Origin: an uncultured bacterium
GTDB taxonomy: Bacteria > Margulisbacteria > WOR-1 > CAVSGV01
Reading direction: 5' to 3'
Assembly (NCBI GenBank): GCA_963699255.1
Contig: OY969425.1
Span: 935,112-999,111 of the forward strand
DNA: 64,000 nt
The notes under the pieces are model-generated. The model had not been told where the DNA came from, ran no database searches, and saw nothing but the letters and a program-made list of their open reading frames with translations. The position numbers and the translations under genes are program-made. Numbering within the stretch: position 1 is the first letter of the stretch; each line of letters starts with the position of its first letter. Shown here piece by piece: positions 3,005 through 46,244 of the stretch.

Positions 3005-3141
3005 CTTCACCCCCTTGTACACTTATTTTAATTTATTTTATTTGTATTCAAATCGCCTCACTCCGCTTAAGTTCCTGCTTGGCTTTCAGCATGTTTACCC
3101 TCTTGAATTTTTTATTTTATTTATTTTTCAAGCTCAATACG
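2968..3141. repeat. Tandem imperfect duplication (2 x ~87 bp) of the RBS/start region of the zinc-ribbon gene
   Basis: Unit 1 (2968-3055) and unit 2 (3056-3141) align at roughly 75% identity; unit 2 keeps an RBS-like AGAGGGT, an ATG and 14 codons before a stop. Confidence 0.6.
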
Positions 3142-3726
3142 CATATTCACACTCGAACCTCTGCCAGTTATCTCCTGCAACCATCCTAAATCGAGCTGTA
3201 CGCGATGTTCCTGCCGCAACAATATCCTTTTATATCCTGCGCCCCATCTCATCTTACAATCGATTTTCCACGGCCCCTATACCTTGTCCTGAATGTTTTC
3301 GCGTTCTTCTGATCATTTGCGCTCTTACTGACCGATTGCCCCTTTATAAAAATCCAGAAGGAACCTGTGATTTTCACCTGGGCCACGACAAATATTTTTC
3401 TGGAACGGCCCAGTAGTCTTAATATTTTATTTGCGGCTCCTTTCTTCAAACCTGATATTCATGCTCGAACCCCTCCAAAGTATCGCCGTATCCCGCTCCA
3501 AACAGATGTTTACGCTGGTTATAGCATCGAACAATATATTTACCTTCTCTCGAAACTAACGCCTTGTATAACTGATTTTTCAAGACCCAATACCTTGCTT
3601 TTCTCTTACTTTCACGGAAGAAGGCCTCTTTTCTTGTTCATGAACAAGTATCAAGGCCTATTATCATCCTTAGTTATTAACCAATGTATTAATACCCTTT
3701 TACATACTTTGTATTTATAACTTAAA

Positions 3727-7085: not shown

Positions 7086-7237
<152 letters not shown>

Positions 7238-11870: not shown

Positions 11871-11958
11871 AAATCCCTCCCCCGCTACCTCTTTTATGCT
11901 TCAGTTACGTAGTAGCCAAGGTTCTCCCGCCAAAGGCGGGAAAATCCTACCCCCGCTA
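11871..11958 (+). repeat. Composite att-like repeat copy B: variant 17-mer, 43-bp block, hairpin, 17-mer
   Basis: AAATCCCTCCCCCGCTA at 11871-11887, shared block at 11888-11930 (one or two mismatches to copy A), AAATCCTACCCCCGCTA at 11942-11958. Confidence 0.7.
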
Positions 11959-14959: not shown

Positions 14960-15073
14960 CTTACTCCAATGCCGATCGTTGCCGCGGGAAGATAATTGCT
15001 GATGGGCTCCGCGATCGAATATTGCTTTACGGGACGGAATAATATAATATTACGGCGAAAGGGTGATCATCAC

Positions 15074-15952
15074 ATGAAACGCTTTATATTAAAATATATT
15101 TCCTGCATCGTTCTTGTCGCCTTTGTTTCCGTCTGCCTTATAAATCCCTCTCCCGTACGCGCGGCGGCCAACACCGGGACGCTGAAGATATTCTCCGAGG
15201 TAAAGGGCATTGACCTGTTTATTGACGAGCAGCCGCAGGGCAAGGACAAGGCCGAAATAAACGACGTCCAGGTCGGCAGCCATTACGTAAAAGCGGTAAA
15301 AGACGGCGCGACCATATACAGCGAGCTTATAACCGTTGCCGCCGGAGCGACCACCACGATACTTATCAAGGACACGGGCCAGGTGAAAGAGAAGGTCCTG
15401 GAGAGCAAATACAAGGAGCAGCAGGAATACAAGAGCAAGAAGATCGACATACTCCTGAGCAAAGGCATGCAGACCGTGGGGACGGCCTACACAAGCAGCA
15501 ATTATTTCCCGGGATACTACTCGATATTCGGCTCCGGCTGGACCACTTCTTCTTCGTCGACGGCGTATGAGACCACCGACTGGAAGATAATACAGGGAGG
15601 CGTGCAGGAGATATCCGATGTCCAGTTCGCGTCGCTGGTGAACGACAGTGACGCGTTGAAAGTGAACAAGGATGCCTGGGATACTTACAATAATAATGTC
15701 GTCATATTCGGGGTCATAGGTTTGGTCGGAATAGTTGCCACTGTTGCAGGATTGGGCACCGCCGGAGATTCCGGCGCCGCAGTGGCTGCCGTCGGTATCG
15801 CTGCCGCAGTAATAGGCTGCGGCGTATGTTTGGGTGCTAAGGAACCGAGCGGGCATCTGACAAGCCCGGGCGATGCCGCGAAAAAAGCATATGAGTACAA
15901 CCAGGGCCTGAAAAAGCAGCTTGGACTGCCCGAGGATTACGAGCCGCAGTAA
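15074..15952 (+). CDS. PEGA-domain protein with C-terminal transmembrane segment
   Basis: Signal peptide starting MKRFILKY (M27 of the tracked ORF); TGTLKIFSEVKGIDLFIDEQPQGK...VQVGSHYVKAVKDG resembles a PEGA domain; Gly/Ala-rich TM near the C-terminus. Confidence 0.5.
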   Translation: MKRFILKYISCIVLVAFVSVCLINPSPVRAAANTGTLKIFSEVKGIDLFIDEQPQGKDKAEINDVQVGSHYVKAVKDGATIYSELITVAAGATTTILIKDTGQVKEKVLESKYKEQQEYKSKKIDILLSKGMQTVGTAYTSSNYFPGYYSIFGSGWTTSSSSTAYETTDWKIIQGGVQEISDVQFASLVNDSDALKVNKDAWDTYNNNVVIFGVIGLVGIVATVAGLGTAGDSGAAVAAVGIAAAVIGCGVCLGAKEPSGHLTSPGDAAKKAYEYNQGLKKQLGLPEDYEPQ

Positions 15953-15954
15953 AG

Positions 15955-16035
15955 TAGAGATCAGAGACTGGAGACCAGAGATCGGAATAAGATCCAGGAT
16001 TTCTGATTTCTAATCTCTGATCTCTAATCTCTAAG
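15955..16035. repeat. Low-complexity imperfect palindrome (AGAGATC / GATCTCT motifs)
   Basis: AGAGATCAGAGA at the left and its reverse complement TCTCTGATCTCT at the right; shares the 19-mer CTCTGATCTCTAATCTCT with 30805-30823. Confidence 0.6.
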
Positions 16036-16043
16036 GATTTCTC

Positions 16044-16856
16044 ATGAACAAAAGCCCTGAACATAAATGGAACGCCGCCGACTACGCCGGTAATTCTTCG
16101 GCGCAGGCCAGGTGGGGGCGCGATCTTATCGCCAAACTCGAACTGCGGGGGGGCGAATCCGTCCTGGACATCGGCTGCGGCGACGGAAAGCTTACCGCCG
16201 CGCTTGCAAAGCAGCTTCCCAAAGGTTTCGTTCTGGGTGTGGATAATTCTATAGAGATGATCCGGTTTGCCAGGAAAAATTTCCCCTCTGATGGATTCCC
16301 CAACCTTTCTTTCAAGGTATGCGACGCGCGCAAGTTGAACTTTTCAAAAAAGTTCGACCTTGTGGTTTCTTTTTCCACTCTTCATTGGGTGAAAGACCAC
16401 ATGCCGGTACTCAAGAGAATTCTGCTCAGCCTTAAACCGGGAGGCAAGGCGCTCCTGCAGTTCGGAGGAAAAGGCAATGCCGCAGATATTTTAGCCGTTA
16501 CCGATGATGTCATTGCTGGCGGCAAATGGAAAAAACATTTCCGCCGTTTTATCTTTCCCTGGCATTTTTATGAGCCGAAAGAATACGGCGTTTGGGTAAA
16601 GGAGGCCGGTTTAAAGCCGAAGCGGATCGAGCTTGTTGAAAAAGACATGGTCCAGGAGGGCAAGGAAGGCCTTATCGGCTGGTGCAGGACGACGTGGCTG
16701 CCTTATGTCAGCCGCGTTCCGGCAGGTTTGCAGGATGAATTCCTGGCCGAGGTCGTTGATCGATATCTGGAGCGTTATCCGCTGGATGAAAACGGCCGCG
16801 CCCATGTTAAAATGCAGAGGCTGGAAGTGGAAGCATATAAAAAAAGTAAGAAGTGA
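16044..16856 (+). CDS. Class I SAM-dependent methyltransferase (Tam-like)
   Basis: W.AADY...Q..WGRDLI...VLDIGCGDGKLT pattern as in trans-aconitate methyltransferase-like enzymes. Confidence 0.7.
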   Translation: MNKSPEHKWNAADYAGNSSAQARWGRDLIAKLELRGGESVLDIGCGDGKLTAALAKQLPKGFVLGVDNSIEMIRFARKNFPSDGFPNLSFKVCDARKLNFSKKFDLVVSFSTLHWVKDHMPVLKRILLSLKPGGKALLQFGGKGNAADILAVTDDVIAGGKWKKHFRRFIFPWHFYEPKEYGVWVKEAGLKPKRIELVEKDMVQEGKEGLIGWCRTTWLPYVSRVPAGLQDEFLAEVVDRYLERYPLDENGRAHVKMQRLEVEAYKKSKK

Positions 16857-16884
16857 GAAGTTGAAAGGAAGAAGGAAATCGGTA

Positions 16885-17002
16885 CTTCTAACTTCTTCCT
16901 TCTCCCTTACCCCCTGTTCGCATCTCCCATCTCTCATCTCTTCTGTTGTCCCGATGTCCCGATCCGAAAGGCACCGTCTGGGAAATGAGAAAGATAGACT
17001 GA
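16885..17002 (+). repeat. Direct repeat L (~115 bp, pyrimidine-rich) flanking the ORF6N gene
   Basis: CTTCTAACTTCTTCC...CCCGATCCGAAAGGCACCGT(C/A)TGGGAAATGAGAAAGAT; roughly 85% identical to 17650-17759. Confidence 0.7.
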
Positions 17003-17005
17003 GCT

Positions 17006-17530
17006 CTACTCTCTCCCTTTTAGAAACCCGATATTCTTGGCCGTACGGTCCGGCATCTCAATAAGCTCATTTATAGCATCAAACACAGCCTTGAACTGGC
17101 CGTCATATTTTCTCTCAAGCTCTTCGATCTTCCTCCTCAAACCCTCATGACTTGAAAGTAATACTCTCAATTTAGTGAATGTCCGCATGATCTGGATGTT
17201 CACCTGGATAGCTCTTTTGCTTCTCAGGACAGAGGAAAGCATTGCTATCCCCTGTTCGGTAAATGCGAAAGGTTCGGAACCTCCGAAATAAGACTTTGAT
17301 GGTATGCCAAAATGGCAGACCATCTGATCGATCTCTTTTTGGGTCAGAACAAACATGAAATCGTCGGGAAATCTGTCAATATTCCTTTTCACCTGTCTCT
17401 TAAGTTGAAAATTTTCAACCCCATAAAGCGCTGCCAGGTCCTTATCAAGCATTACTTTTTTGCCTCTGAACAGATAAATATTTTTCTCGATAACCTCATG
17501 CGGAACCAGCTCACTTGCCACATTGATCAC
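17006..17530 (-). CDS. ORF6N-domain protein (KilA-N-like, phage antirepressor family)
   Basis: FRGKKVMLDKDLAALYGVENFQLKRQVKRNIDRFPDDFMFVLTQKE is the ORF6N signature; a coiled-coil ORF6C-like tail follows. Confidence 0.75.
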   Translation of the reverse strand: MINVASELVPHEVIEKNIYLFRGKKVMLDKDLAALYGVENFQLKRQVKRNIDRFPDDFMFVLTQKEIDQMVCHFGIPSKSYFGGSEPFAFTEQGIAMLSSVLRSKRAIQVNIQIMRTFTKLRVLLSSHEGLRRKIEELERKYDGQFKAVFDAINELIEMPDRTAKNIGFLKGRE

Positions 17531-17649
17531 CCCGTGGATAGTAGCAGCAATTTTAATTCCGCATATTTTATTCGTATGTAGAGCAAAATCGTGTAGTTAT
17601 TTTTGACAAGAGTAGTAATTCCCGACAGCAGTTCAAATTATACTTATAA

Positions 17650-17759
17650 CTTCTAACTTCTTCCTTTTTCCTTGTCCCTTGCTCCCATCTCACATCTCTC
17701 ACCTCTTCTCCTATCCCGATCCGAAAGGCACCGTATGGGAAATGAGAAAGATCGATTGA
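17650..17759 (+). repeat. Direct repeat R (~110 bp), partner of 16885-17002
   Basis: Same sequence family and same orientation as repeat L on the other side of the ORF6N gene. Confidence 0.7.
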
Positions 17760-17866
17760 TTTTCTTACAGGCAGATATCGTTGCCGGGGAATGTGGATGA
17801 GAAGAAAGTGAAGATTGAGAGGAAAGGAAGTAAAATTATCATCAGATACAATAAAGCTGATTTGTT

Positions 17867-18412
17867 CTAAATATCCACCAAAATGATTTTAACTGGGACT
17901 GACGGGAAATGTCTTTCTAATCTTTCAATATCAAAAACCAGCTGTTCACCATATGACACGCCAGTCGACATATACTTTTGAAGGTTGTGACACGGAACGA
18001 TTTCCACTCCCACATTCGCTCTGTTTGCATTGAAAAAATATTGGAATTTTGCGAGGTCATAAAACATAAAGGGATATTTTCCAAACTGGACTTCAATTAG
18101 AACTTTATCTTTAACAAAATCCACCTGCTTAAATGCTCCGGGGATCTTGATTTTTGAATTTGGAATCGTAAGAACATATTGATCCTTTAATTCCCTAAAG
18201 CCTCTTTTATGGAATGCATCTTTAAACTTTTGATTTAGGTCTTTTGGGGAATAGAGTTTTACACCCATCATAGTTTTTTCTTTGCTTACTTTCGTTTTTG
18301 TAACTTTTGTTATACTTTTAATAACATCATTGATTTCTTTGTTAATAGCAGGAAAAGTAACTTGGAGTATTTCGCTTCCGCCTAAATGAGAATATTCGTA
18401 TACTTTTTTCAT
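17867..18412 (-). CDS. Type II restriction endonuclease, BglII/BstYI-like (probable)
   Basis: 181 aa; QVDFVKDKVLIEVQFGK gives D-x8-E-x-Q spacing like the BglII catalytic triad (from memory); 4-bp overlap with the adjacent methyltransferase. Confidence 0.5.
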   Translation of the reverse strand: MKKVYEYSHLGGSEILQVTFPAINKEINDVIKSITKVTKTKVSKEKTMMGVKLYSPKDLNQKFKDAFHKRGFRELKDQYVLTIPNSKIKIPGAFKQVDFVKDKVLIEVQFGKYPFMFYDLAKFQYFFNANRANVGVEIVPCHNLQKYMSTGVSYGEQLVFDIERLERHFPSVPVKIILVDI

Positions 18413-19344
18413 ACTGCCGCCAACTCTCTGTCTTTGTATCCTAACGGATATGCAAATTGAATGGTTTCAGCTGGAACTTTATATATCGGCTTATTCATCG
18501 GGCGTGTTTTGATCGTTCCCTCAAAAGTTTCTTTAATTCGCTTTTTTGATATCTGAATATACTCGGGCATTATTTCTGCACCTATCGCTCTTCGGTGATG
18601 CAGAAGCGCTGCCACGGCAGTCGTTCCGGTTCCGATGAAAGGATCAAGGACGAGATCATCTTTTCGTGTCATAGCCAGGATCAATCTTTCAATGAGTTCA
18701 ACGGGAAACTGACATGGATGTTGCGTCTTCTCAACATGATTGTTCTTTACGTTTGGAATGTTCCACAGATCACCCGGATTTTTCCCAAGAGGATTACAAG
18801 AGAGCTGCCCCTTTTTGGGCCCTTTAAAATACTTCTTTTGAGGATATTTCTGAGGGATCCTTATTGGATCAAGATTAAATACATAATCATCGCTTTTCGT
18901 GAACCATAAGACCGATTCGTATCGGCCTGAAAGTCTTTTAGAGCAATGCAGGCCATGCTCAAAATGCCAGATTATTCTGTTGCGCAACTTTAACCCGAGT
19001 GATTTAAATATGGGGTATAAAACTGTATCAAGCGGGACTACTTCGCATCTATCAACATAATTTCCAACCTCCCAGCAAATACTCCCGTTTGGCAACAGTG
19101 TTCGCACACATTCCCTGATAACTGATTCCTGGAACGAGAGATATCGATCCAATGAGGTTTTCTTCTCATATTTCTTCCCTATATTATAGGGTGGGGAGGT
19201 AACGATAAGCTGAATTTTTTTGTCCGGTATTTGTTTAAGCAGATCAAGGCAGTCACCTGGGTAAAGGACGACCTTTGCATTTTCAGAGTAATTTTCGCAT
19301 ATTATTTTTGTCATATCTGAACCTAAATTGTCCATATTATACAC
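18409..19344 (-). CDS. DNA methyltransferase, beta-class, probably N4-cytosine
   Basis: Motif IV TSPPYN (SPPY favours m4C) precedes motif I DPFIGTGTT near the C-terminus. Confidence 0.85.
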   Translation of the reverse strand: MYNMDNLGSDMTKIICENYSENAKVVLYPGDCLDLLKQIPDKKIQLIVTSPPYNIGKKYEKKTSLDRYLSFQESVIRECVRTLLPNGSICWEVGNYVDRCEVVPLDTVLYPIFKSLGLKLRNRIIWHFEHGLHCSKRLSGRYESVLWFTKSDDYVFNLDPIRIPQKYPQKKYFKGPKKGQLSCNPLGKNPGDLWNIPNVKNNHVEKTQHPCQFPVELIERLILAMTRKDDLVLDPFIGTGTTAVAALLHHRRAIGAEIMPEYIQISKKRIKETFEGTIKTRPMNKPIYKVPAETIQFAYPLGYKDRELAAV

Positions 19345-29895: not shown

Positions 29896-30651
29896 ATGAA
29901 CTTATCCGGCAATACGGTCCTGATAACCGGCGGAGCGACGGGGATCGGATATGCGATGGCGGAGGCGTTCCTTGAAGCCGGCAGCGAAGTCCTGATCTGC
30001 GGGCGCAGGGCGACCAGGCTGCGCGAAGCGCAAAAGAACCATCCCGAATTCCATAATAAAGTTTGCAACATTGCGGATGATAAGGATAGAAAGTCCCTTT
30101 TCGAGTGGGCGACGTCGAATTTCAGGGATCTGAACGTCCTTGTGAACAATGCCGGCATTCAGCGCGACATAGACCTGACAAAGGGCCTTTATGAGATCAC
30201 CTCGGGCGAAAACGAGATAAAGGTAAACCTGGAAGCGCCGATATATCTCTCCGCGCTGTTCATCCCGTTCCTGGCGAAAAAGAAAGGTGCGGCGATAATA
30301 AACGTATCATCCGGGCTTGGTTTTGTGCCGGCAGTCAAGATGCCGATATACAGCGCGACAAAAGCCGGCGTCCACGCTTACAGCATGGTCCTGAGGCAGC
30401 AGATGTTAAAGATCGGCATAAAAGTTTATGAAGTGATACCGCCGACGGTGGACAGCGAGCTGAACAAAGAAGGAAGGGCGAAGAGGCACATGCCGGCGCC
30501 GGAGCTTAAGCCGAAGGAATTCGTAGCCGCCGTAATGAAGGGGCTTCAGCAGGATGAACCAGAGATAGGTTACGGCATGTCGGCAGGGTTCAAGACCGCT
30601 TCAAGGGCCGATCTGGACAAGAGTTTTCAGATGATGAACAGCAGAATGTAA
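29896..30651 (+). CDS. Short-chain dehydrogenase/reductase (SDR)
   Basis: TGGATGIG cofactor motif, NNAG and catalytic YSATKAG; start moved to the ATG at 29896 with RBS AGGGGGA. Confidence 0.85.
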   Translation: MNLSGNTVLITGGATGIGYAMAEAFLEAGSEVLICGRRATRLREAQKNHPEFHNKVCNIADDKDRKSLFEWATSNFRDLNVLVNNAGIQRDIDLTKGLYEITSGENEIKVNLEAPIYLSALFIPFLAKKKGAAIINVSSGLGFVPAVKMPIYSATKAGVHAYSMVLRQQMLKIGIKVYEVIPPTVDSELNKEGRAKRHMPAPELKPKEFVAAVMKGLQQDEPEIGYGMSAGFKTASRADLDKSFQMMNSRM

Positions 30652-30654
30652 ATG

Positions 30655-30830
30655 ACAAAACCCAAATGTCAAAATCCAAATGAATCATTTAAAGCCAAAT
30701 AACAAACCGGTCTTTCGTGTTCATTTGGAATTGGTCATTCTGTCTTGATTCATTTGTCATTTGATATTGGACATTTGTCATTATGCCCCCGTTAATCTCT
30801 ATTCTCTGATCTCTAATCTCTGCTTTTGTG
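30655..30830. repeat. Intergenic low-complexity repeat element (TGTCATTTG / AAATGACAAA motifs plus CTCTGATCTCTAATCTCT)
   Basis: Imperfect palindrome; the segment at about 30745-30786 (GATTCATTTGTCATTTGATATTGGACATTTGTCATTA) recurs at about 63113-63149, and the 19-mer recurs at about 16013-16031. Confidence 0.65.
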
Positions 30831-35892: not shown

Positions 35893-36624
35893 CTATTTTA
35901 CCGCCCCGTAAACGGCGAAGTTGTAATACTTAAAGTGCGCATCGGCTGAACTGAACCCGGCTTTTCTAAGCCACTCCAGTTCGAGGTTCAGCTTGTTCGG
36001 CCTGTCTTCGCGATTATATCGCTCCAGGTTCTCCTTCATGTCTTCCTGAGGCAGATTGCTTATGACGAATTCCCCCCACTTTTTCAGGTATACCTCCTGG
36101 ATTTTTTCGTCATCTGCCAATATGATGTCAGCGTTCAAAAATATCCCGCCCGGGTTGAGAGCCTCGTATAGTCTGCGGTAAAATCCCATTTTGTTCTTAT
36201 CCGGTTCCAGATGATGCAGCGCCAGGGAAGAAACGACCGCGTCATATTTTTCCTTGAATTTGTAGGCGGCCAGATCGGCCTGCTCATACTTGATGCCGGA
36301 AAACCCGCCCAGCTTCTTTTTGGACATTTCCAGCATCTGCGGGGCGATGTCCATGCACGTTATCCGGGCCTGGGGAAACGCCTGTTTTATAAGGCAGGCA
36401 GCAGTTCCCGTGCCGGCGCCCAGGTCAAGCACGGAAAATTCCTGCTCCCCGGTGAAAGGCAGAAGACTGACCATGACCGCCAGCATTTCCTTATAATATG
36501 GGACCCTCTGCAAGGCCCTCGTATCCCAGATGCCCGCTTCCGAGTTGAAATGATCTTTAACGGTCCTCATTCTGTCTTCGCCCATGATCGGGACATTATA
36601 GACAGTAGTTCCCGCCGTGTCCAT
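35893..36624 (-). CDS. Class I SAM-dependent methyltransferase
   Basis: VLDLGAGTGTAACL motif I; about 240 aa. Confidence 0.75.
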   Translation of the reverse strand: MDTAGTTVYNVPIMGEDRMRTVKDHFNSEAGIWDTRALQRVPYYKEMLAVMVSLLPFTGEQEFSVLDLGAGTGTAACLIKQAFPQARITCMDIAPQMLEMSKKKLGGFSGIKYEQADLAAYKFKEKYDAVVSSLALHHLEPDKNKMGFYRRLYEALNPGGIFLNADIILADDEKIQEVYLKKWGEFVISNLPQEDMKENLERYNREDRPNKLNLELEWLRKAGFSSADAHFKYYNFAVYGAVK

Positions 36625-36825
36625 ATCGTTGCATAATTAATAATTAATAATATTGTTTTTCACAAATGTTTTGATATAATATGAAAGGCAGTGAGGTTTC
36701 CCTGAAAGATTCGATCTTCGGATTCGATCGCCTCTACCAAAGACCGGTTAAATGGTTAAGGGGGGTTTTTTGTTCAGAGGCGCTGCCAGATGGCTGATGG
36801 ATAGAAAAGAAGGGGGAAAATAAAA

Positions 36826-39060
36826 ATGTCAGAATCAAGCGTCATGCTTCCGTTGTTAGGGGCTCTGGAGAACAATCTTCTGTGGATGGTATTCGGGTCG
36901 GCGATAATCGCGCTTCTTTACGGGGCGTACCTCGCCTGGAAGGTCTTGAAGGCTCCGCAGGGGTCGCAGGCCATGATCGACGTGTCAAAAGCCATCCAGC
37001 AGGGTTCGGCAGCTTACCTCGCCCGCCAGTTCAAAGTGATGGGCATCATCATATTTTTACTGACCATAGGTCTGTATTTAATGTACAGGCCGATCTATAC
37101 CAATAATCCGTTCCTGCCGATCGGCATAGCGGGCGCTTTCCTGCTGGGTTCCATGGCATCGGCCGGCGCAGGTTTTGTGGGAATGAACCTGGCCGTACGC
37201 GCTAATGTGCGCGTGGCCAACGCGGCCCTGACCAGCTATAAGAAAGCCCTGGAGATCGCCTTCCAGGCCGGCACAATATCCGGCATGTTCACCGTAGGGC
37301 TTGGATTGCTGGGAGCCACCATCATATTCATGATATTCAAGCAGGATGCCATGAAGGTCCTTATCGGTTTCGGTTTCGGCGGCTCGCTGGTCGCTCTCTT
37401 TATGCGCGTCGGCGGCGGCATCTTCACGAAAGCGGCTGACGTAGGCGCAGACCTGGTCGGCAAAGTCGAGAAGAACATTCCGGAAGACGATCCGAGGAAC
37501 GCGGCGGTCATAGCCGACAACGTCGGCGACAACGTCGGCGACTGCGCCGGCATGGCAGCCGACGTTTTTGAGAGCTACGAAGTGACCCTGGTCGCGGCGA
37601 TCATACTTGGCGCGGGGCTCCTGCTCGACAGCGGCTTCAAGGCGTTCTACGGGGCGGGCGCGGCGGCCATGGCTCTGAAGCTTATCCTTTATCCTCTATT
37701 GGTCCGAGCGGTCGGGGTTTTCGCGTCGATCATCGGGACACTGCTGGTGCGCGGCAAAGACACCGAGGAGATCGGCGATCCCATGCAATCGATCAATTTC
37801 GGCTTCTGGGCGGCGTCCATAACCGCGACGATCGGTTTCGGCGCGGTCAATTATTTTTATCTTAAGGATTGGCGATTTTTCTTCGCGACCCTGACCGGGA
37901 TCATCCTGGCGATCGTGATCGAATGGATAACGAATTACTTCACTCACACGTCAAACCGTCCGGTCCAGGAAACAGCTTACGCGTCAAAGACCGGCCCGGC
38001 GACACTCCTGCTTTCAGGTTTCGGCCTGGGCAAGGAATCTTCTGTCTGGGCGATCCTTGCCATTGCCGCGACTATATTCGTATCAACAAGCATTTTCGGC
38101 GGGAACATAGGGCTCTCGGCTTACGGCATAGCCCTGGCGGGACTGGGGCTTTTAACGACCACCGGCTTTATCCTGGCCGAAGACACTTTCGGGCCGATCT
38201 CGGATAACGCCAGCGGAATTTTTGAAATGTCCGGCGCCAACAAAGGTGCCGGCAAACGCGCGCAGGAAATAACGATCAAGCTCGACGCGGTCGGGAACAC
38301 GACCAAAGCCCTGACAAAAGGTTTTGCCATAGCCACGGCGGTCATCGCGGCCATCGCGCTGTACAGGTCATTTATCTCCGAAGGCGGGCTCCTGCTAACG
38401 GGCATTCAGCTCAATATGCCGGATGTATTCATCGGCCTGCTGATAGGAGGCGCTGTGCCGTTCCTTTTCTCTTCGCTATTGATAAACGCGGTCGGACGCT
38501 CCGCTTTCTTCGTGGTCGAAGAGGTCCGTCGCCAGTTCAGGGAGATCCCCGGGATCATGGAAGGCAAAAATAAGCCGGAGTACGACAAGTGCGTGGACAT
38601 CGTGACCATCGCCGCGCAGAAAGAGCTGGTCGGTCCGGTAATAATCGGGGTTTGCACCCCTATCGCCGTCGGTTTCGGCCTGGGCGTCGCGGCGCTCGGC
38701 GGCTATCTGGCGGGCACTATACTTGTCGGACAGCTTCTCGCGGTCATGCTCTCGAACTCCGGTGCGATCTGGGATAACGCCAAGAAGGTAATTGAGATGG
38801 GCGCGCACGGGGGCAAAGGCAGCGAGTGTCACAAGGCGGCGGTCATCGGCGATACGGTCGGCGATCCATTCAAAGATACGGCCGGTCCGGCGCTCAACCC
38901 GTTGATCAAGGTAATGAACCTGGTATCGATCCTGATCCTGCCGCTTCTTCTTCTCGGATTTGATATAAAGATCCGTTTGGGCATCGTGATCGTTTGCGTT
39001 CTTCTGATCATTTTCGCGCTCTGGCTGTCGAAAAAAGAAGGGATAATGACCGAGCGATAA
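36826..39060 (+). CDS. hppA: Membrane-bound proton/sodium-translocating pyrophosphatase
   Basis: 744 aa polytopic; hallmark DNVGDNVGDCAGMAADVFESY and GDTVGDPFKDTAGPALN motifs. Confidence 0.9.
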   Translation: MSESSVMLPLLGALENNLLWMVFGSAIIALLYGAYLAWKVLKAPQGSQAMIDVSKAIQQGSAAYLARQFKVMGIIIFLLTIGLYLMYRPIYTNNPFLPIGIAGAFLLGSMASAGAGFVGMNLAVRANVRVANAALTSYKKALEIAFQAGTISGMFTVGLGLLGATIIFMIFKQDAMKVLIGFGFGGSLVALFMRVGGGIFTKAADVGADLVGKVEKNIPEDDPRNAAVIADNVGDNVGDCAGMAADVFESYEVTLVAAIILGAGLLLDSGFKAFYGAGAAAMALKLILYPLLVRAVGVFASIIGTLLVRGKDTEEIGDPMQSINFGFWAASITATIGFGAVNYFYLKDWRFFFATLTGIILAIVIEWITNYFTHTSNRPVQETAYASKTGPATLLLSGFGLGKESSVWAILAIAATIFVSTSIFGGNIGLSAYGIALAGLGLLTTTGFILAEDTFGPISDNASGIFEMSGANKGAGKRAQEITIKLDAVGNTTKALTKGFAIATAVIAAIALYRSFISEGGLLLTGIQLNMPDVFIGLLIGGAVPFLFSSLLINAVGRSAFFVVEEVRRQFREIPGIMEGKNKPEYDKCVDIVTIAAQKELVGPVIIGVCTPIAVGFGLGVAALGGYLAGTILVGQLLAVMLSNSGAIWDNAKKVIEMGAHGGKGSECHKAAVIGDTVGDPFKDTAGPALNPLIKVMNLVSILILPLLLLGFDIKIRLGIVIVCVLLIIFALWLSKKEGIMTER

Positions 39061-39123
39061 CCGGCCTTCGCTCGATACGGGGCTATTTGATCGACTCTGA
39101 TGATCCGGTCAGGAAGTGACCTG

Positions 39124-40359
39124 TTAATGGTTCACGCCGTTTTCTTTCTTAAATTGAGCGACCAGAGCCGGGATATCCAGATACGCGCGCATCGAATCCG
39201 TACAGCAGAAGAATTTTTTCGCGTTCTTATCCACGTATTTTTTTATCGCGGGGAAATCGTCCTGAAGTTTCAGCAGCTGGACCATCGCCTCTTTCATTAA
39301 GAACATCTTGATAAGTTTCTTTTCGTCTCCCGTGGCGCCGTCGTGATCAAAAAAGCGGGACAGGGGCTTTTCCAATACCTGATAATAGAAAGGATCCACA
39401 AAACCCCTGAAATGTTGCATGGTGTCGATCTTTGCCGCCGCAACATACGAATATGTCCTGAGGACAAGCGGATCGTCCGCCCATGTAAGCGCTTTCAGGT
39501 TCTTTATATATTGTCCGTATTCACCCGCAAAACAGACGTATTTATCCACATTAGATAAATAGGCTGCTCCAATCTCCTTTTTTACGTCCGAGCCGGCTTC
39601 AGACATCGCCTGATTAATGACTCTCGAGACTTTCCTGTCCGCGATATTCCCTTCTATGATCGCAATGTCATTATTTATTGCCCGCTCTCGCAGATAATTG
39701 AATGATTCCATGGTGAACAGCCACTCGTTCTGGTAAGGCTTAAGGGACGTCTCCCCTGTCCAAATATGAAAGAACGAATACAGGAATATATCCCTCAGGA
39801 ATCTTTTTTCAGGGTTGGTCAACATTTCCGTTAACAGGGCGAATTCTTCCGCGTCTTTTATTGCACCCCTTGCATACTGGAGATTTTTCTGGGCTATCAT
39901 CATATTACCACAACCCTCGTTTTTTATGGGATCGCTGATATCAAAAATATGCTTCGAGATCGCGCTCAAGAGTTCGTTATCATCCTGAATGGCAATGTTT
40001 CGTGCCTCCTTGATGAGCATGGCGCTTTTTGCAAAAGCAAGGAATTCAAAAGGATTCTTTGTGATCTTTAATAATGTCTTTATCGCCGAAAGGTGGTCGG
40101 CAACATCAACGGAAACATCCACTATTATCGATTTCTGCGGCTTAATTTTGCATATGTGATCGAAGTTCTGATGGCTGCCGATCCCTAAATATATCCCTTT
40201 TGTCTCCCTCTGACCATAAGTAAATCCGGACAATCTTTCATTGGAATGGATGTCTCCAAATCCCCCGCTTTCAAACCCCACCGTACATCCCGGCGGACGT
40301 ATCTTCTTAATATAAGCGGGAGCCTTTATTCTCGTAACCGCCTTTGAAAATATGCTCAT
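39124..40359 (-). CDS. Hypothetical cytoplasmic protein (411 aa)
   Basis: Long ORF with no signal peptide and no motif I can place. Confidence 0.5.
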   Translation of the reverse strand: MSIFSKAVTRIKAPAYIKKIRPPGCTVGFESGGFGDIHSNERLSGFTYGQRETKGIYLGIGSHQNFDHICKIKPQKSIIVDVSVDVADHLSAIKTLLKITKNPFEFLAFAKSAMLIKEARNIAIQDDNELLSAISKHIFDISDPIKNEGCGNMMIAQKNLQYARGAIKDAEEFALLTEMLTNPEKRFLRDIFLYSFFHIWTGETSLKPYQNEWLFTMESFNYLRERAINNDIAIIEGNIADRKVSRVINQAMSEAGSDVKKEIGAAYLSNVDKYVCFAGEYGQYIKNLKALTWADDPLVLRTYSYVAAAKIDTMQHFRGFVDPFYYQVLEKPLSRFFDHDGATGDEKKLIKMFLMKEAMVQLLKLQDDFPAIKKYVDKNAKKFFCCTDSMRAYLDIPALVAQFKKENGVNH

Positions 40360-40524
40360 GATATCTTCTTATCGATAAAATCAATGAAAAATCCCACTTT
40401 TCACAGCGGATCCCCGCGCGAAGCAACACTACTGGTCAGAAAAGCCATGCCTCCAAAACAATGCAAGTTTACGGCGCCATCTCCCGATATATATCATGGA
40501 AGATGAAGCAAAGGAGATGTGCAA

Positions 40525-40776
40525 ATGAGCGGATCAATAAGCGGATTATCCTTAAATTCCAGTACCGCAATATCAAGTGCGCAAGACGAGACGAATTTAT
40601 TCGATGCGATCAACAGCATCGCCACAAGTTCATCGTCAGATTCGGATTCGGATGCTATTGATTCCATGGCTTCATCCCTGAATAGTTCAGCGCCATCCAG
40701 CACAAGCACAAGCGGTACCAGCTCTGTATCAAATCCCTTTTCAACTTCGGGGACGATAACGAACACCATAGCTTAG
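40525..40776 (+). CDS. Ser/Thr-rich low-complexity small protein
   Basis: RBS AAGGAG then ATG; translation is over 40% Ser/Thr (SSSSDSDSDAIDS...). Coding status uncertain. Confidence 0.3.
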   Translation: MSGSISGLSLNSSTAISSAQDETNLFDAINSIATSSSSDSDSDAIDSMASSLNSSAPSSTSTSGTSSVSNPFSTSGTITNTIA

Positions 40777-40833
40777 GAACGCCGCTCCCTCGTTTTGCTC
40801 ATGCTCCCGCCGAAAAAACCAAAACGCCTTCAA

Positions 40834-40862
40834 TTTACATTGCTTATTTTATTCACTATAAT
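40834..40862 (+). promoter_or_regulatory. Sigma-70-like promoter (TTTACA-N17-TATAAT) ending 6 nt before the rpoN ATG
   Basis: -35 at 40834-40839, -10 at 40857-40862; rpoN ATG at 40869 with no room for an RBS, so a leaderless transcript is predicted. Confidence 0.45.
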
Positions 40863-40868
40863 GCCCAC

Positions 40869-42236
40869 ATGAACAAACTGGGGCTCGGATATGAACTTAA
40901 CCTCTCAAATACGCTTGAGCTGATGCTCTCGCCGCGCATGATCCAGATGCTCAGGATGCTGAACCTCTCCTATGTGGAGCTTGTGGAGGAGATAGAGAAA
41001 AGATCCGAAGAGAACGTGATGCTGGAGCTGGAACACCCGGACAGGCTGCTGGAATACCTGAAGCACATAAGCACCGAGAGGATATCTAAAAAGGAGATCC
41101 CTTATGAAGAGCTGCCGGGAATAGAGAGCCTGGCCGACACGGCAGAGACCCTTGAGGACCACCTCCTCAAGCAGCTTGATCTTGAAGAGCTGAATGAAAA
41201 GAAAAGAAAGATCGCTGAATTCATCATAGGCAGTATCGACACGAGAGGTTATCTGCAGAATTACGAGCAGATCAGCGGAGCGATAAAAAAGGAACTGGGC
41301 GCGAGCCAGAATGAGATAGACAGCACGCTGGAGGTGATCCAGGATCTGGAGCCGGATGGCGTGGGAGCAAGGGCCCTGAAGGAATGCCTCCTTATACAGG
41401 TAAGGGAATACAACTTTGAAAGCGAAGAACTGGAAGATTTGCTGACAAAGGCGATAGAGGACCACCTGGATGACTTCGCGGAAAAGAAATTCGACAGGAT
41501 CGCGAAAGCGCTGAAGATCGGAAGGGACGGCGCCGAAAAGCTCGCCGAGTTCATAAAGAACAACCTCAATCCCAACCCGGGATCGATGTTCGCCGAGAGG
41601 CTTCCCTGCGTGATCCCTTCTTTTTCGATCGTAAAAGAAAAGGACAAATACAAGGCCGTTAACCTGGAAAAGACCTACGGCCCGTCGCTCAAGATCAGTC
41701 CCGTGTATGAAAAAATGCTGAGAGACCCGAAAACCGACGCGAAGAGCCTTGAATTCCTGAAGGAAAAACTTGAAGCGGCAAAGGATTTCCTGGAGAACAT
41801 CGCGAAACGGCATGAAACGATCGAAAAAATACTTGACCTGATAATCGCGGCCCAGAGCGGATCTTTTGAAGGCGGCAAGCTTAAGTTGAACCCTCTTATG
41901 CAAAAGAACATCGCAAAGGACCTCGGCCTTCACCCGTCCACCATCTCAAGGGCGATCGCGAACAAATATATACAGACCCCCCGCGGGATCATCCTCCTGA
42001 AAACCCTCTGCCCCCGGGAGATAAAAGGCACGACCGGCGAAAAGATCCATAAGCTTATACAGGTCATCATCGATTCGGAAGACAAAAAAGATCCGCTGAC
42101 GGACGAGGAGATAGCCGAAAAGCTGAAGAGCGACGGCCTGTACCTTGAGAGAAGGACCGTGGCTCTGTACAGGAAAAAGCTGGGATTTGAAATAGCTTCG
42201 AAAAAGAGTGAAATTTTAAGTCGGAACATACGATAA
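40869..42236 (+). CDS. rpoN: RNA polymerase sigma-54 factor
   Basis: Region I LELMLSPRMIQMLRMLNLSYVELVEEIE; HTH LGLHPSTISRAIANKYIQTPRGIILLKTL; RpoN box ERRTVALYRKKLG. Confidence 0.9.
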   Translation: MNKLGLGYELNLSNTLELMLSPRMIQMLRMLNLSYVELVEEIEKRSEENVMLELEHPDRLLEYLKHISTERISKKEIPYEELPGIESLADTAETLEDHLLKQLDLEELNEKKRKIAEFIIGSIDTRGYLQNYEQISGAIKKELGASQNEIDSTLEVIQDLEPDGVGARALKECLLIQVREYNFESEELEDLLTKAIEDHLDDFAEKKFDRIAKALKIGRDGAEKLAEFIKNNLNPNPGSMFAERLPCVIPSFSIVKEKDKYKAVNLEKTYGPSLKISPVYEKMLRDPKTDAKSLEFLKEKLEAAKDFLENIAKRHETIEKILDLIIAAQSGSFEGGKLKLNPLMQKNIAKDLGLHPSTISRAIANKYIQTPRGIILLKTLCPREIKGTTGEKIHKLIQVIIDSEDKKDPLTDEEIAEKLKSDGLYLERRTVALYRKKLGFEIASKKSEILSRNIR

Positions 42237-42266
42237 TATAGCGTCAAAACACCTATTCGCAAGGCC

Positions 42267-43721
42267 TTGACGGAAGCGGGAGAAAAAATGACCGACGGTA
42301 AAGCAGACATATTGATAGTTGAAGATGAAAAAAACGTAAGAGCCGCGCTCTCCCTTGCTCTCTCGGATAAATACAACCTCTTTTCGGCATCCGACGGGAA
42401 AAAGGCCCTCGAAATGATCTTTGAAAGGAACATCGACCTGGTGCTTCTGGACATAAGGCTTCCCGAAGTGAACGGGATGGACGTCCTTAAACAAATAAAG
42501 GACATGAGCAGCTCGATCCCGGTGATAATGCTTACGGCAGTCAGGACCGTTGATTCCGCCGTATCAGCCATGAAGCTCGGCGCCTACGATTACGTGATAA
42601 AGCCTTTTGACATAAACGAACTGATGGCGCTGATCGAAAAAGCGCTTGAAAAAAGGAACCTTGAAAAGGAGAACGTTTTTCTGAAGAACGAGCTTGAGAA
42701 GACCGGCGGCTTTGAAAAGATCATAGGCATGAGCGAGAAAATGAGGGAAATTTTCAAGCTGATAAAAAGCGTGGCGAGAGGCGACGCAACGGTGCTTATC
42801 ACAGGAGAGTCCGGGACCGGCAAGGAACTTGTCGCGAGGGCGATACACCACCAGAGCAAGAGGGCAAAAAAACTGTTCGTCCCGGTGAACTGCGCGGCGA
42901 TCCCCGAGAACCTTCTCGAGTCCGAGCTCTTCGGCTATGAAAAGGGCGCTTTTACGGGGGCGTATGAGCGGCGTCTGGGTAAATTCGAGATCGCCAACGG
43001 CGGAACGATATTCCTGGATGAGATAAGCACAATGCCGCTCCCAATGCAGGCAAAGCTACTCAGGGTCCTTCAGGAGCGCGTCATAGACAGGGTGGGCGGC
43101 ACGATCCAGGTAGAGATCGACGTGAGAGTGATCTCCGCCACGAATTCGGACCTTAAACAGGAGGTCGACAACAAAAAATTCAGGGGCGACCTGTTCTACA
43201 GGCTTAACGTGATCCCGATGGTCATCCCTCCGCTCAGGGAGCGAACGGAAGACATACCTCTGCTGGTGAACTATTTCCTTGATAAGTACAACAAGGAGTT
43301 CGGCAAAAAGATAAAAGAGTTCGACGCTGATGCCATGCACGTTCTCACTTCCTATCCCTGGCCGGGCAACGTCAGGGAACTGGAGAACCTGATAGAGCGG
43401 CTCGTGGTCCTGAGCGACAGGAACATTATCACAAAAGACAAGCTCCCTCCCGAGATATACAAAAAGCTGATGGACGAACACGCGAAAAGATTCGAAATGG
43501 ACTTCATAAAACAAGCCATACAAAAATCCAACTTGAACGAACGGCAGCTGAAAGCGATAGAACTCGTCAAAAGCCAGGGGAAGATAACGAAGCAAACCTA
43601 TATCAAGCTGACCAACACCCCGAAAACCACTGCTTTCAGGGACCTGCATACGCTCGTAAAGCTCCACATATTGACCCAGAAAGGCATCGGAAAGAGCTCC
43701 TGCTACACGCTCTCGGATTAG
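42267..43721 (+). CDS. Sigma-54-dependent response regulator (NtrC/PilR-like activator)
   Basis: REC domain; AAA+ domain with Walker [15 protein letters not shown] loop and Walker B FLDEI; the C-terminal DNA-binding region is not the usual Fis-type HTH. Confidence 0.9.
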
Positions 43722-43743
43722 CGCCCGGAATCCAGTCCACTTA

Positions 43744-43781
43744 GGACCGCAAACGGACCGCAAAACGGACCGCAAAACGGA
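43744..43781 (+). repeat. Three tandem copies of GGACCGCAAA(A)C
   Basis: GGACCGCAAAC GGACCGCAAAAC GGACCGCAAAAC GGA, 23 nt after the activator stop codon and about 110 nt before the next gene. Confidence 0.7.
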
Positions 43782-43888
43782 AACTCATCATATTTACCCG
43801 CGTCCATTATGGCTTTATTTGGTATGATAATTGCTATATAATAGATGGAACCAATGTTTAGGCACGATCCTATAAAGGAGTGATCTAC

Positions 43889-44290
43889 ATGGCAAGGCTT
43901 GAGCCCGGTGAGCAGAATGAACAAAAAGAGATGAACCCGAAGTTCCTTTCCGTGATCCTTGACAGGGATTTCCAGAAACAGCAACTCGAGGAAAAAGACA
44001 GATCAAAGGTGGAGCTGTTCGAGCGCGGGCTCGCGTGTGAGCTATTAACGTCCGATACCATCGACAGGTCCGTGGAAAAGATAGTGAAAATGGCCCTTGC
44101 CTGCGAATTCGGCGCGGAGCTGGTAACAAAACCGGCCGCAAAAAAAATGGTCTCCGTTATAAGCCGCGGCATCCTGTCGGACAGGGATCTGAGGAGATCC
44201 GCTCTTATCATAGCCGACAGGTTCGCGACCAGCAGGAAGACCAAGATCGTGCCTCTTAGGGGGAAGGGAAAGTCCGTGATAAATGGCTGA
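43889..44290 (+). CDS. Hypothetical protein (133 aa) between the two activator genes
   Basis: RBS AAAGGAG then ATG at 43889 (the tracked ORF starts on GTG at 43880); its stop overlaps the start of the next gene. Confidence 0.5.
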   Translation: MARLEPGEQNEQKEMNPKFLSVILDRDFQKQQLEEKDRSKVELFERGLACELLTSDTIDRSVEKIVKMALACEFGAELVTKPAAKKMVSVISRGILSDRDLRRSALIIADRFATSRKTKIVPLRGKGKSVING

Positions 44291-45587
44291 TATTAAACCA
44301 GTAATACTTGTCGTCGATGACGAAACGAACATAAGAGAATCTTTCACCCTCATTCTGGAGAAAGAATTCAATGTGATCACCGCCGCCTCAGGAGAAGCCG
44401 CGCTTAAAAGGATCATAGACGAGAAGGTCGACCTGGTATACCTCGACATAAGAATGCCGGGAATGAACGGCATGGAAACGCTTAAGAGGATAAAAGAAAT
44501 AGACAGCAGCATTGAAGTTATAATGGTCACCGCACTGAATGACGTTGGAGGCGCGGCCGCCGCGATCAAGCTCGGGGCCAAAGATTACATCGTAAAGCCT
44601 TTCGACGTGAAGGATATCCTGAACAGGACGAGAAGCTTTGTGATAAAAGCCCAGACAAAAGCCATAAAGCCGCCAATGGAGGATGAACTGATAGGCAACA
44701 GCAGGCAGATCCAGAACATAAGGAAAGTTGTGGAGCAGCTATCGCAAAAGGGCTCTTCCGTACTGATCATCGGGGAGAAGGGACTCGAAGCCGAACAGAT
44801 CGCCGCGATCGTGAACGGCGAATCCGAAAAGGAACTGAAGAAGCTGGACGCGTCTTCCGATCTCGGAAGTTGGGTCCTTTTTGGGCGCGAGAAGGGTTCT
44901 TTCACGTCTGAGTTCGAAAAAGAAGCCGGCATGCTGGAGGAAGCGAACGGTGGCATACTGTTCATAAGGAACATAGAACTCCTTCCCATGGACGTTCAGA
45001 AAAAGCTGGGACAGGCGCTTTCAAAAAAAGAATTTTCCCGCGACGGCTCCTCTGCGGCGATACACGTGGACTTGAGGGTTATAGCGGAAACATCCGCAGA
45101 TCCGGCTGAACTCATAAAAGAAGGCAGCTTTGACAGGGACCTTTATAACGCCATAAGCAGAACGGTGATCGAGCTGCCTCCGCTCAGGATGAGGGAAAGC
45201 GACATACCGATACTGATAAACCACTATGTTGATAAATTTTCGATCAAATACGACAGGCAATTAAAAGTATCCCCCGAAGCCCTTGAAATACTCGCGGGCT
45301 ATCCATGGCCCGGGAATCTGGCCGAGCTGTCGAACGTTATAGAGGCGATCATGCTGTCGAGCAAAAAGGAAGTGCTGGAACCGGACGATCTCCCCCTGGA
45401 TATCCTGATAAAAAGCCCCGCCGGAGGAAGGCCATTCACGACGCTTGAGAATATCGAAGGAAAGTTCGAAAAAGCCCATATCCTTAGCGTTTATAAAAAA
45501 GCCGGGGAAAGCAAAGAGAAGGCTTCGGCAATGCTCGGTATAGGGCTGAAGACCCTGGAATCCAAGCTTGAATCGATCAACGCCTGA
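44283..45587 (+). CDS. Response regulator with degenerate sigma-54-activator AAA+ domain
   Basis: Intact REC; Walker A position reads GEKGLEAE (no GK), GAFTGA position reads GSFTSEF, Walker B position reads FIRNI. Confidence 0.7.
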   Translation: MADIKPVILVVDDETNIRESFTLILEKEFNVITAASGEAALKRIIDEKVDLVYLDIRMPGMNGMETLKRIKEIDSSIEVIMVTALNDVGGAAAAIKLGAKDYIVKPFDVKDILNRTRSFVIKAQTKAIKPPMEDELIGNSRQIQNIRKVVEQLSQKGSSVLIIGEKGLEAEQIAAIVNGESEKELKKLDASSDLGSWVLFGREKGSFTSEFEKEAGMLEEANGGILFIRNIELLPMDVQKKLGQALSKKEFSRDGSSAAIHVDLRVIAETSADPAELIKEGSFDRDLYNAISRTVIELPPLRMRESDIPILINHYVDKFSIKYDRQLKVSPEALEILAGYPWPGNLAELSNVIEAIMLSSKKEVLEPDDLPLDILIKSPAGGRPFTTLENIEGKFEKAHILSVYKKAGESKEKASAMLGIGLKTLESKLESINA

Positions 45588-46243
45588 TGGCCTCAAGACT
45601 TATCCCGATAGACCTCCTTATCCTTGACTTTGACGGCACGCTTACGGACTCGATCCCGCCCGCGGTCGCCGCGATACAGAAAATGCTCAAAAAACTGGGC
45701 CTTCCCTACAGATCAAAGAAAGAGATCAATGAACACGTCGGCTACGGAGAGCCCCCGCTTCTTGAAGGGTCAACAGGTTCCAAAGACCCGGAGCTGCTGA
45801 AGAAAGCGATGAGCACCTATGAGAAGATATATATGAAAGAAGGGATCAAAAAAGTCACATTATATCCCCACGTGAAGGGATTCCTTGAATATTTCAAAGA
45901 TAAGCCAAAAATTATCGTTTCCAACAAAAAAGATCTTTTCATAAAAATGATACTCAAGAACCTGGGGTTGACGAAGTATTTTAAAGAAATTCATGGAGGG
46001 GATACCCTGCCCTGCCTTAAGCCGGACCCGCACGCGATAAACATCATGATAAAGAAATACCGGGTTTCGAGGAATCGGGTGTTGTTCATCGGGGACATGA
46101 CGGTGGACATCGAGACCGGAAAGAACGCGCATGTGCGCACATGCGCTGTGACCTACGGATTTGACAGCGTGAGCAAATTAAAGAAGCACAAGCCTGATAT
46201 CCTGATCGATAATCTGATGGAGCTGAAGGATCTGATAGAATGA
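45587..46243 (+). CDS. HAD-superfamily hydrolase (phosphoglycolate phosphatase-like)
   Basis: Motif I LILDFDGTLTDS and motif FIGDMTVD. Confidence 0.75.
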   Translation: MASRLIPIDLLILDFDGTLTDSIPPAVAAIQKMLKKLGLPYRSKKEINEHVGYGEPPLLEGSTGSKDPELLKKAMSTYEKIYMKEGIKKVTLYPHVKGFLEYFKDKPKIIVSNKKDLFIKMILKNLGLTKYFKEIHGGDTLPCLKPDPHAINIMIKKYRVSRNRVLFIGDMTVDIETGKNAHVRTCAVTYGFDSVSKLKKHKPDILIDNLMELKDLIE

Positions 46244-46244
46244 A

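Follow-up and report, generated by a model that had tools for sequence, protein, structure and literature searches.

An imperfect hairpin of heptamer arrays in a Margulisbacteria-like genome resembles known bacterial short tandem repeat pairs

That bacterial genomes carry an excess of heptamer repeats has been recognized since 2007 and is still unexplained. Enterobacteria have REP and BIME elements, imperfect palindromes found in spacers that are transcribed, lack promoters and separate co-directional or convergent genes. These elements are generally taken to serve as mRNA 3' stem-loops of a generic kind; they have a conserved consensus of about 35 nt in common and are tied to RAYT transposases. 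The STRR of filamentous cyanobacteria are usually 7-bp repeats and form hairpins close to gene 3' ends and between hupS and hupL; no function is known for them, and stabilization, translational coupling and pausing or termination have been proposed (PMC2670836). About 90% of the (GGGANTN)n arrays of Xanthomonas are intergenic; they are found 28 nt from the upstream ORF and seldom between divergent genes (Rehm et al. 2015, PMC4692102). Each genome holds 70-75 convergent inverted pairs of these arrays, which vary between species and for which no function was found, and a polymerase-slippage hypothesis for the heptamer excess is cited in the same work (PMC4692102). Direct TAACTGA heptamer repeats occur in Beggiatoaceae, Cyanobacteria and Bacteroidetes, with 7-nt indels between strains (MacGregor 2015, PMC4679880), and their sets are almost all direct, with 1 inverted among 170 (PMC4679880).

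The element described here lies in a 64-kb stretch of DNA from a Margulisbacteria-like genome, which as a whole is referred to as the window. It occupies the 91-nt spacer (15953-16043) between a PEGA-domain gene (Pfam; 14996-15952, TAA stop codon at 15950-15952) on the 5' side and a class I SAM methyltransferase gene (Pfam; 16044-16856, ATG at 16044) on the 3' side. In order, the spacer and the start codon read AGT AGAGATC AGAGACT GGAGACC AGAGATC GGAATAAGATCCAG GATTTCT GATTTCT AATCTCT GATCTCT AATCTCT AAGGATTTCTC ATG; that is, AGAGATC, AGAGACT and GGAGACC units precede their complements GATTTCT, AATCTCT and GATCTCT. On the plus strand, a purine-rich 5' arm of four heptamers (15955-15983) begins 3 nt past the PEGA stop codon and is followed by a loop or inner imperfect part (GGAATAAGATCCAG, 15984-15997), delimited by folding and inverted-repeat search, and by a pyrimidine-rich 3' arm of five heptamers (15998-16032) that is 49% T. 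This 3' array adjoins the Shine-Dalgarno sequence (SD; AAGGA, 16033-16037) of the methyltransferase gene.

Tandem, imperfect 7-bp units are evident at this site, as TRF finds arrays of period 7 and period 14 at 15956-15981 and 15998-16034, and 7 is the sole enriched lag in self-matches. An inverted-repeat search pairs arms at 15955-15983 and 15998-16026 (29 nt, 83% complementary, 14-nt loop), which makes this the second-longest inverted repeat across the window. The resulting hairpin is imperfect, with AGAGAYC-type heptamers in its 5' arm and complementary RATCTCT heptamers in its 3' arm; its stem has about 43% GC and ends 6 nt before the SD, the sequence past the stem being ATCTCTAAGG. The sequence-only reading had described a hairpin-forming, low-complexity, intergenic stretch, and its coordinates, composition and hairpin potential are all correct. 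The RNA folding that it proposed as a check agrees: 15955-16032 folds with a minimum free energy of -39.7 kcal/mol (z = -3.77), and none of 200 shuffles was equally stable.

A terminator had been suggested as one identity of the stretch, and this is not borne out. Intrinsic terminators combine a GC-rich stem, a 3-8-nt loop and a T-run, whereas the present element has a stem of moderate GC content, a 14-nt loop and no T-run. A terminator and promoter scan of 15500-18000 flagged neither kind of signal in the element and no promoter-like site in the spacer. Because the hairpin ends so close to the SD and the spacer contains no promoter-like site, efficient termination would silence the methyltransferase gene, and the element is at most a weak attenuator. 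The suggestion of a small RNA likewise finds neither a promoter nor an Rfam family, nor conservation in orthologous spacers. At the gathering score of Rfam 15 a tRNA is the sole match in the window, sub-threshold matches amount to miRNA-hairpin noise (22-25 bits against the 70-99 needed), and 18 foreign loci gave no match. When both strands of 37 pairs were folded, the sense strand was the stabler in 15 and the antisense strand in 21 (p = 0.08); there is no sense-strand advantage, which argues against a G·U-tuned structure in sense mRNA.

Two structured-DNA identities were also considered and rejected. No GGG occurs in 15955-16032, where the units are RGAGAYY, and the arms thus lack the runs of a G-quadruplex. 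The published grammar of intrastrand triplexes (ITxF/TMECO) asks for three blocks in a row, each homopurine or homopyrimidine and 6-15 nt long, with loops of 1-6 nt (PMC4666352); here T or C interrupts every unit, and a 14-nt loop separates just two blocks. As the arms contain no GGG runs and are not homopurine, G-quadruplex and triplex models are inapplicable.

Part of the 3' arm had been reported to recur near 30.8 kb, and this recurrence is real. The quoted string of 18 letters is exact at 16015-16032 and 30804-30821, with 0 occurrences expected in shuffles, and the full exact match is 19 nt long (TCTCTGATCTCTAATCTCT, 16014-16032 and 30803-30821), with flanks that differ on both sides. It stands above random background in window shuffles and in a cross-genome search, so it is not a string occurring at background frequency. 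The second copy belongs to a solitary pyrimidine-strand heptamer array of TAATCTC type (30793-30822, plus strand), which lacks an inverted partner and is followed, 35 nt downstream, by the ATG (30857) of a 75-aa ORF. Similarity between the 16.0-kb and 30.8-kb sites stops at the array edges, and the shared stretch is limited to the 19 nt. Because arrays of TCTCTRA units need to agree at only about two variable positions, the shared 19-mer is a coincidence of repeat units rather than a product of common descent or transposition. The specific relationship between the two loci that the sequence-only reading had implied is thus replaced by a common 7-base unit. It would be a mistake to take the match for a mobile element, a small RNA or a regulatory link between the loci, and a suitable annotation of the focal element would be heptamer simple-sequence inverted repeat.

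The same 18-mer occurs at no fewer than 118 places, spread over many phyla, in a collection of species-representative genomes. By our own arithmetic, a random 18-mer would be expected about 17 times over both strands of 596 Gb. Carriers among the matches listed include Chloroflexota, Acidobacteriota, Bacteroidota, Kiritimatiellota, Saccharibacteria, Zixibacteria, Clostridia and others; the matches listed often come several to a MAG, and their flanks are always unrelated. An inverted partner made of AGAGAYY or GGAGAYY units lies upstream in 46 of the 110 listed arrays with full flanks (42%) and downstream in 2, compared with 2 upstream and 0 downstream in shuffled controls. Convergent inverted pairs able to form stem-loops are therefore frequent, being found at the focal site and in these 46 foreign arrays. 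Since an inverted repeat reads alike on both strands, the purine-first order holds whichever way the element is transcribed. Arms are also more complementary to their own partner than across loci (21 of 24 cases, p = 0.0005).

These foreign arrays occupy recurrent positions relative to genes. The hairpin-type elements nearly fill their spacers, 28 of which are co-directional, 3 convergent and 2 divergent, so that divergent spacers account for 2 of 33 elements as against about 20% of the intergenic DNA in the same loci (binomial p 0.02-0.04). Solitary purine-sense arrays start at a median of 4 nt past a stop codon, with 13 of 18 within 6 nt (p = 0.0014), and solitary pyrimidine-sense arrays lie at a median of 20 nt from the downstream start, a preference that is not significant (n = 12, p = 0.55). 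With the matching region masked, 824 kb of foreign loci contain 47 further lag-7 blocks, against 0-7 at lags 4-12; these have many unrelated unit types, and several form nearby inverted pairs. As the masked loci hold so many more blocks, heptamer arrays are a genome-wide habit of the organisms that carry the 18-mer. The ORF caller used was crude and placed 26 of the 118 foreign arrays (L004-L117) inside ORFs, several of them clearly wrongly. In 25 of these 26 the purine strand is the sense strand, and some may be genuine in-frame arrays.

The cross-genome search also bears on the view that a mobile element (MITE- or REP-like) or a small-RNA gene was copied between 16.0 kb and 30.8 kb. This view, which draws on the presence of an exact 19-mer at both loci where shuffles predict 0 and on the palindromic structure, is essentially refuted: identity ends at the array edges without terminal inverted repeats or target duplications, the 30.8-kb site has no partner arm, the 18-mer is found in unrelated phyla with unrelated flanks, and the element contains no internal promoter-like site and belongs to no Rfam family. 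Membership among MITEs or other transposed repeats was rejected, the homology of the two loci being confined to 19 nt inside arrays.

Within the window, at least eight heptamer-periodic inverted pairs of at least four unrelated unit types are present, and the top inverted repeats (I1, I2, I3, I6, I8 and I9) are all heptamer-periodic and all intergenic. A self-match of the window gives 4 strong blocks at lag 7 against 0-1 at each other lag from 2 to 15, and a relaxed self-match with a shorter matching window gives 9 against 0-2 at lags that are not multiples of 3. The longest inverted repeat in the window is a plus-strand hairpin of a second family (30651-30782; AAATGAC, AAAACCC and AAATGTC units answered by TCATTTG and ACATTTG), which begins at the stop codon of an SDR gene and has arms at 30651-30687 and 30746-30782. 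A GAAG-type hairpin (GAAGTTGAAAGGAAGAAGG ... ACTTCTAACTTCTTCCTTCTCC; 16857-16905, plus strand), for which Rfam returned only a noise match, stands in a convergent spacer directly past the methyltransferase stop codon. An ATCG-type hairpin (48392-48458; TAATCGG AAATCGC TAATCGA TAATCGA and their complement), with arms at 48400-48423 and 48435-48458, lies between the minus-strand enolase and prepilin peptidase genes. A low-complexity hairpin with purine-rich and pyrimidine-rich arms (52617-52730, plus strand) directly follows the stop codon of the gene at 51402-52616. An inverted pair of ATTGGAC/ATTTGAC type (54382-54530, plus strand; arms 54382-54409 and 54503-54530) is found before a pilin-like gene, and one of AAATGAC/TCATTTG type (63028-63148; arms 63028-63060 and 63119-63143) lies between two minus-strand genes and overlaps the stop codon of the upstream gene. 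The sole exception to the purine- or A-rich-first order in the window is a large pair with a long spacer at 17640-17835, where CTTC-type arrays precede GAAG-type arrays.

All eight pairs are situated between co-directional or convergent genes and none in a divergent spacer, most begin 0-5 nt past a stop codon, and in seven of the eight the purine- or A-rich arm comes first. The dispersed copies are thus biased towards intergenic DNA, with at least eight pairs or arrays in 64 kb, all within the 11% intergenic share of the window. At the focal site, in the foreign loci and elsewhere in the window alike, the purine strand is the coding strand and the arrays lie close behind the upstream ORF and are rare between divergent genes. 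Membership in the REP/BIME group was rejected, as the window pairs have unrelated units and no common consensus. A separate direct repeat of about 115 nt with 83% identity (16888-17000 and 17648-17765) flanks an ORF6N gene (17006-17530, minus strand); its core is CCCGATCCGAAAGGCACCGTNTGGGAAATGAGAAAGAT, with CT-heptamers just before it, and among the fetched loci it is seen only in this genome. As a structured RNA this repeat was discarded, since on neither strand is its folding better than that of shuffled sequence.

The positional regularities raise the question of transcription. A non-canonical, bidirectional attenuator or terminator might act if the hairpin formed while RNA polymerase stood on the weak pyrimidine-RNA/purine-DNA hybrid of the 3' arm, and the purine-first order would confer this property on both strands. 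Such a device would account for the purine- or A-rich arm coming first (46 of 48 listed foreign pairs, 7 of 8 window pairs), for the placement of elements just past stop codons and their depletion between divergent genes, and for a 3' arm that is 49% T; the absence of a folding strand preference fits a role on two strands, and STRR hairpins have been proposed as pause or termination sites (PMC2670836). We nevertheless consider it unlikely, as there is no T-run and the terminator scan was silent, the stem lies 6 nt from the methyltransferase SD in a spacer without a promoter-like site, the foreign hairpins likewise occupy tight, operon-like spacers, and the element is not conserved in orthologous spacers. 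Canonical GC-rich terminators with T-runs are also present in the window. One such terminator-like hairpin (GGGAGCTGACTAGTCGGCTCCC followed by a T-run, about 54352-54382) directly precedes the heptamer pair at 54382-54530, which suggests that heptamer pairs are not mere terminator substitutes.

Related loci indicate how quickly such arrays change. Among the fetched loci, L001 is 100% identical to the window and is the same genome. In L121 (methyltransferase 76% identical), the PEGA-methyltransferase synteny is retained together with the 5' purine arm directly past the same TAA; the focal 3' arm is missing, with GAAG-type heptamers in its place, and a near-perfect AGAGAYC hairpin is found instead past the methyltransferase stop codon. 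In L120 (78%), a remnant of PEGA retains the same C-terminus; behind it come GTATCAG-type repeats, which are unrelated, and a Fic gene that has been inserted. None of 13 distant PEGA orthologues (51-70% identity), which are informative on absence only, has an array past the stop codon, and an exact 21-mer from the conserved PEGA 3' end had 0 matches in metagenome contigs. Elsewhere in the window, L139 aligns with 35894-52298 as one block of 87% identity and lacks the 48392-48458 hairpin (its spacer is 40 nt, against 97 nt in the window), while the tRNA, promoter regions, three GGACCGCAAAAC 12-mer repeats and the H+-pyrophosphatase leader are conserved. Rapid variation in length and sequence among related genomes is thus seen in L121, L120, L139 and the 13 PEGA orthologues. 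Because relatives lose or replace arrays yet conserve the tRNA, promoters and 12-mer repeats, the arrays appear to be lineage-specific, with a turnover much faster than that of functional non-coding DNA. A single long purine-rich array in L120 (11640-11760) drifts in unit from AGGGAYW through AGGAAGA to AGAGAYC; unit families therefore interconvert within one array.

The sequence-only reading had also suggested a recombination hotspot; what the rapid gain, loss and replacement of arrays in relatives supports is a mutational hotspot. This turnover also bears on a DNA-level structure (cruciform, slipped-strand or triplex) that would act on supercoiling, replication or recombination and thereby create a hotspot of instability. 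Strand-symmetric folding and rapid turnover at the sites are in keeping with this, and the purine/pyrimidine asymmetry of the arms recalls triplex-prone DNA, intrastrand triplex motifs having been tied to instability in enterobacteria (PMC4666352). It is very improbable here, however: with arms that are not homopurine and a third block missing, the published triplex grammar does not apply, and GGG runs are absent; 83% complementarity with a 14-nt loop would be unfavourable for cruciform extrusion; and neither the purine-first order nor the orientation relative to genes is predicted.

The relatives also bear on translation. A translational cis-element would use the SD-adjacent pyrimidine array as a platform for a CsrA-like factor, a cold-shock protein or ribosomal protein S1. 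The SD-like purine arm would mask this platform until a ribosome terminating on the upstream gene uncovered it, giving translational coupling as proposed for the TAACTGA repeats. The CT array does adjoin the SD at 16033, the purine arm 3 nt past the stop codon would be within reach of a terminating ribosome, and solitary pyrimidine-sense arrays lie nearer the downstream start (median 20 nt). TAACTGA repeats are found one to a few nucleotides before start codons and Csp proteins bind heptamer units (PMC4679880), and coupling has been proposed for STRR (PMC2670836). We judge this quite improbable, since CT-sense arrays show no significant positional preference (n = 12, p = 0.55), orthologous methyltransferases manage without the element (a 23-nt spacer in L120, overlapping genes in L122, no CT arm in L121), the AAATGAC and ATCG families of the window have no SD or anti-SD character, and the sense strand has no folding advantage.

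Taken together, we estimate a probability of about 65% that the focal element is one copy of a genome-wide class of heptamer-array inverted pairs, like the STRR and the Xanthomonas/Nostoc pairs. It is an ordinary member of a known repeat class and not a dedicated terminator, small RNA or mobile element. The most likely origin is 7-nt slippage combined with inverted duplication in promoter-free spacers: arrays would expand and contract as slipped strands mispair in a 7-nt register, the second arm would arise and stay similar by inverted duplication or intrastrand template switching, and arrays would persist only where promoters are undisturbed. The coupling of arms is also compatible with selection for pairing rather than template switching. 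On a PEGA-methyltransferase co-transcript, the predicted stem-loop of about -40 kcal/mol would begin 3 nt past the stop codon and end 6 nt short of the SD. Its most likely effect, if any, would be that of a generic, sequence-tolerant intercistronic stem-loop that makes 3'-to-5' decay of the upstream cistron slower, partly attenuates read-through, or both, and a role at the RNA level would be at most of this kind. An effect of this sort has been suggested for STRR hairpins but never shown.

Two regularities stand out against neutral slippage alone, which predicts neither the purine-arm-first order (46:2) nor the hugging of stop codons. Both are robust yet unexplained, and they hint at selection or a strand-specific mechanism. 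They could be the grammar of a functional cis-element, with RGAGAYY arrays and hairpins kept convergently across phyla as generic intercistronic insulators rather than as slippage debris. This has a small chance of being correct; if it is, the element would be read by a conserved machine such as the terminating ribosome, an RNA polymerase sensitive to hybrid stability or an OB-fold heptamer binder (S1, Csp), and the bacterial heptamer excess would have a functional reason. To our knowledge, cyanobacteria lack Rho. Avoidance of Rho was therefore not adopted as the cause of the purine-after-stop rule, which Nostoc also follows (PMC4692102).

Several other features of the window and its relatives were observed alongside the heptamer arrays. 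A plus-strand gene block of about 4.7 kb is bracketed by two identical 31-nt direct repeats (CCCGCCAAAGGCGGGAAAATCCTACCCCCGC; 7205-7235 and 11926-11956), whose similarity reaches to about 37 nt and which could be attachment sites of an integrated element. The PEGA-rpoN segment of about 25 kb (15953-40868) contains methyltransferase, ORF6N and efflux genes and a BglII-type restriction-modification pair (17867-19344) that L120 and L121 lack. In L126, a 70% PEGA orthologue, an rpoN-like promoter and start (3136-3230) that resemble the window at about 40830-40880 come directly past the PEGA stop codon, and the segment may therefore be variable. All organism-labelled relatives of RpoN (40869-42236; 47-55% identity) belong to Candidatus Margulisiibacteriota/Saganbacteria, a neighbourhood that is the sister lineage of Cyanobacteria. 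The window thus probably derives from this neighbourhood, a placement that such modest identities leave tentative.

Beside rpoN and between two sigma-54 activator genes, the three GGACCGCAAAAC repeats (43744-43781) lie upstream of a sigma-54-type promoter-like TGGYATGATAATTGCT. Relatives of 87% identity conserve them (L139, 12840-12875; L140, 4930-4965), and because they are conserved in this way, unlike the heptamer arrays, they are probably enhancer-binding sites. Three direct (C)TTGACGAT repeats with a period of about 11 nt, upstream of genes in L120 (4895-4945) and L121 (2880-2915), look like a repeated -35 or operator arrangement. The H+-pyrophosphatase leader (36690-36815; L139, 5760-5900) is well conserved (...AAGGCAGTGAGGTT...CCTCTACCAAAGACC...) and matches no Rfam family; a structured 5' leader is one possibility.

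Among described systems, the REP and BIME elements differ most plainly from the arrays described here, whose arms are low-complexity tandem heptamers of many unrelated units without a common consensus. The TAACTGA repeats resemble them in being intergenic heptamers with a patchy distribution across phyla, and their pyrimidine-leaning forward arrays before start codons recall the CT arrays at 16032 and 30822. They differ in that 42% of the listed foreign arrays here have an inverted partner and in that the unit here is TCTCTRA; the focal array is partly alike in adjoining an SD but is one arm of an inverted pair, and does not belong to the TAACTGA group specifically.

The (GGGANTN)n repeats of Xanthomonas and the GGGGA(C/T)T repeats of Nostoc share more with the focal class: heterogeneous heptamers close behind the upstream ORF with the purine- and G-rich strand coding, mostly in convergent inverted pairs with stem-loop potential, and strong variation in length and sequence among related species. 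Their G3-4 tracts, which in four or more units have G-quadruplex potential, are absent from the focal element, which therefore has no G4 or i-motif potential. The drifting array of L120, which passes from AGGGAYW to AGAGAYC, links the G-rich and RGAGAYY unit types. G-quadruplex formation is unlikely to be the property that unifies the heptamer class, because RGAGAYY arrays follow the same positional grammar and cannot form such structures.

No description of an RGAGAYY family emerged when the literature was searched for its unit strings (AGAGATT and others). What the present comparison adds is the occurrence of RGAGAYY hairpins in Chloroflexota, Acidobacteriota, Bacteroidota, Kiritimatiellota and Saccharibacteria as well as in a Margulisbacteria-like genome, and a strongly constrained arm order (46:2). 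These regularities extend a described phenomenon rather than reveal a new one, and are of little import for this window alone. Like the STRR, the focal class consists of 7-bp units dispersed through intergenic DNA, with hairpins between co-transcribed genes or behind the preceding gene; unlike them, it has RGAGAYY, GAAG-type, AAATGAC and ATCG-type units and a host that is not a filamentous cyanobacterium, and the RGAGAYY architecture is found in many other phyla. The focal element shows every defining feature of the heptamer or STRR-type kind, and departs from it only in the family-specific units and in G-quadruplex potential.
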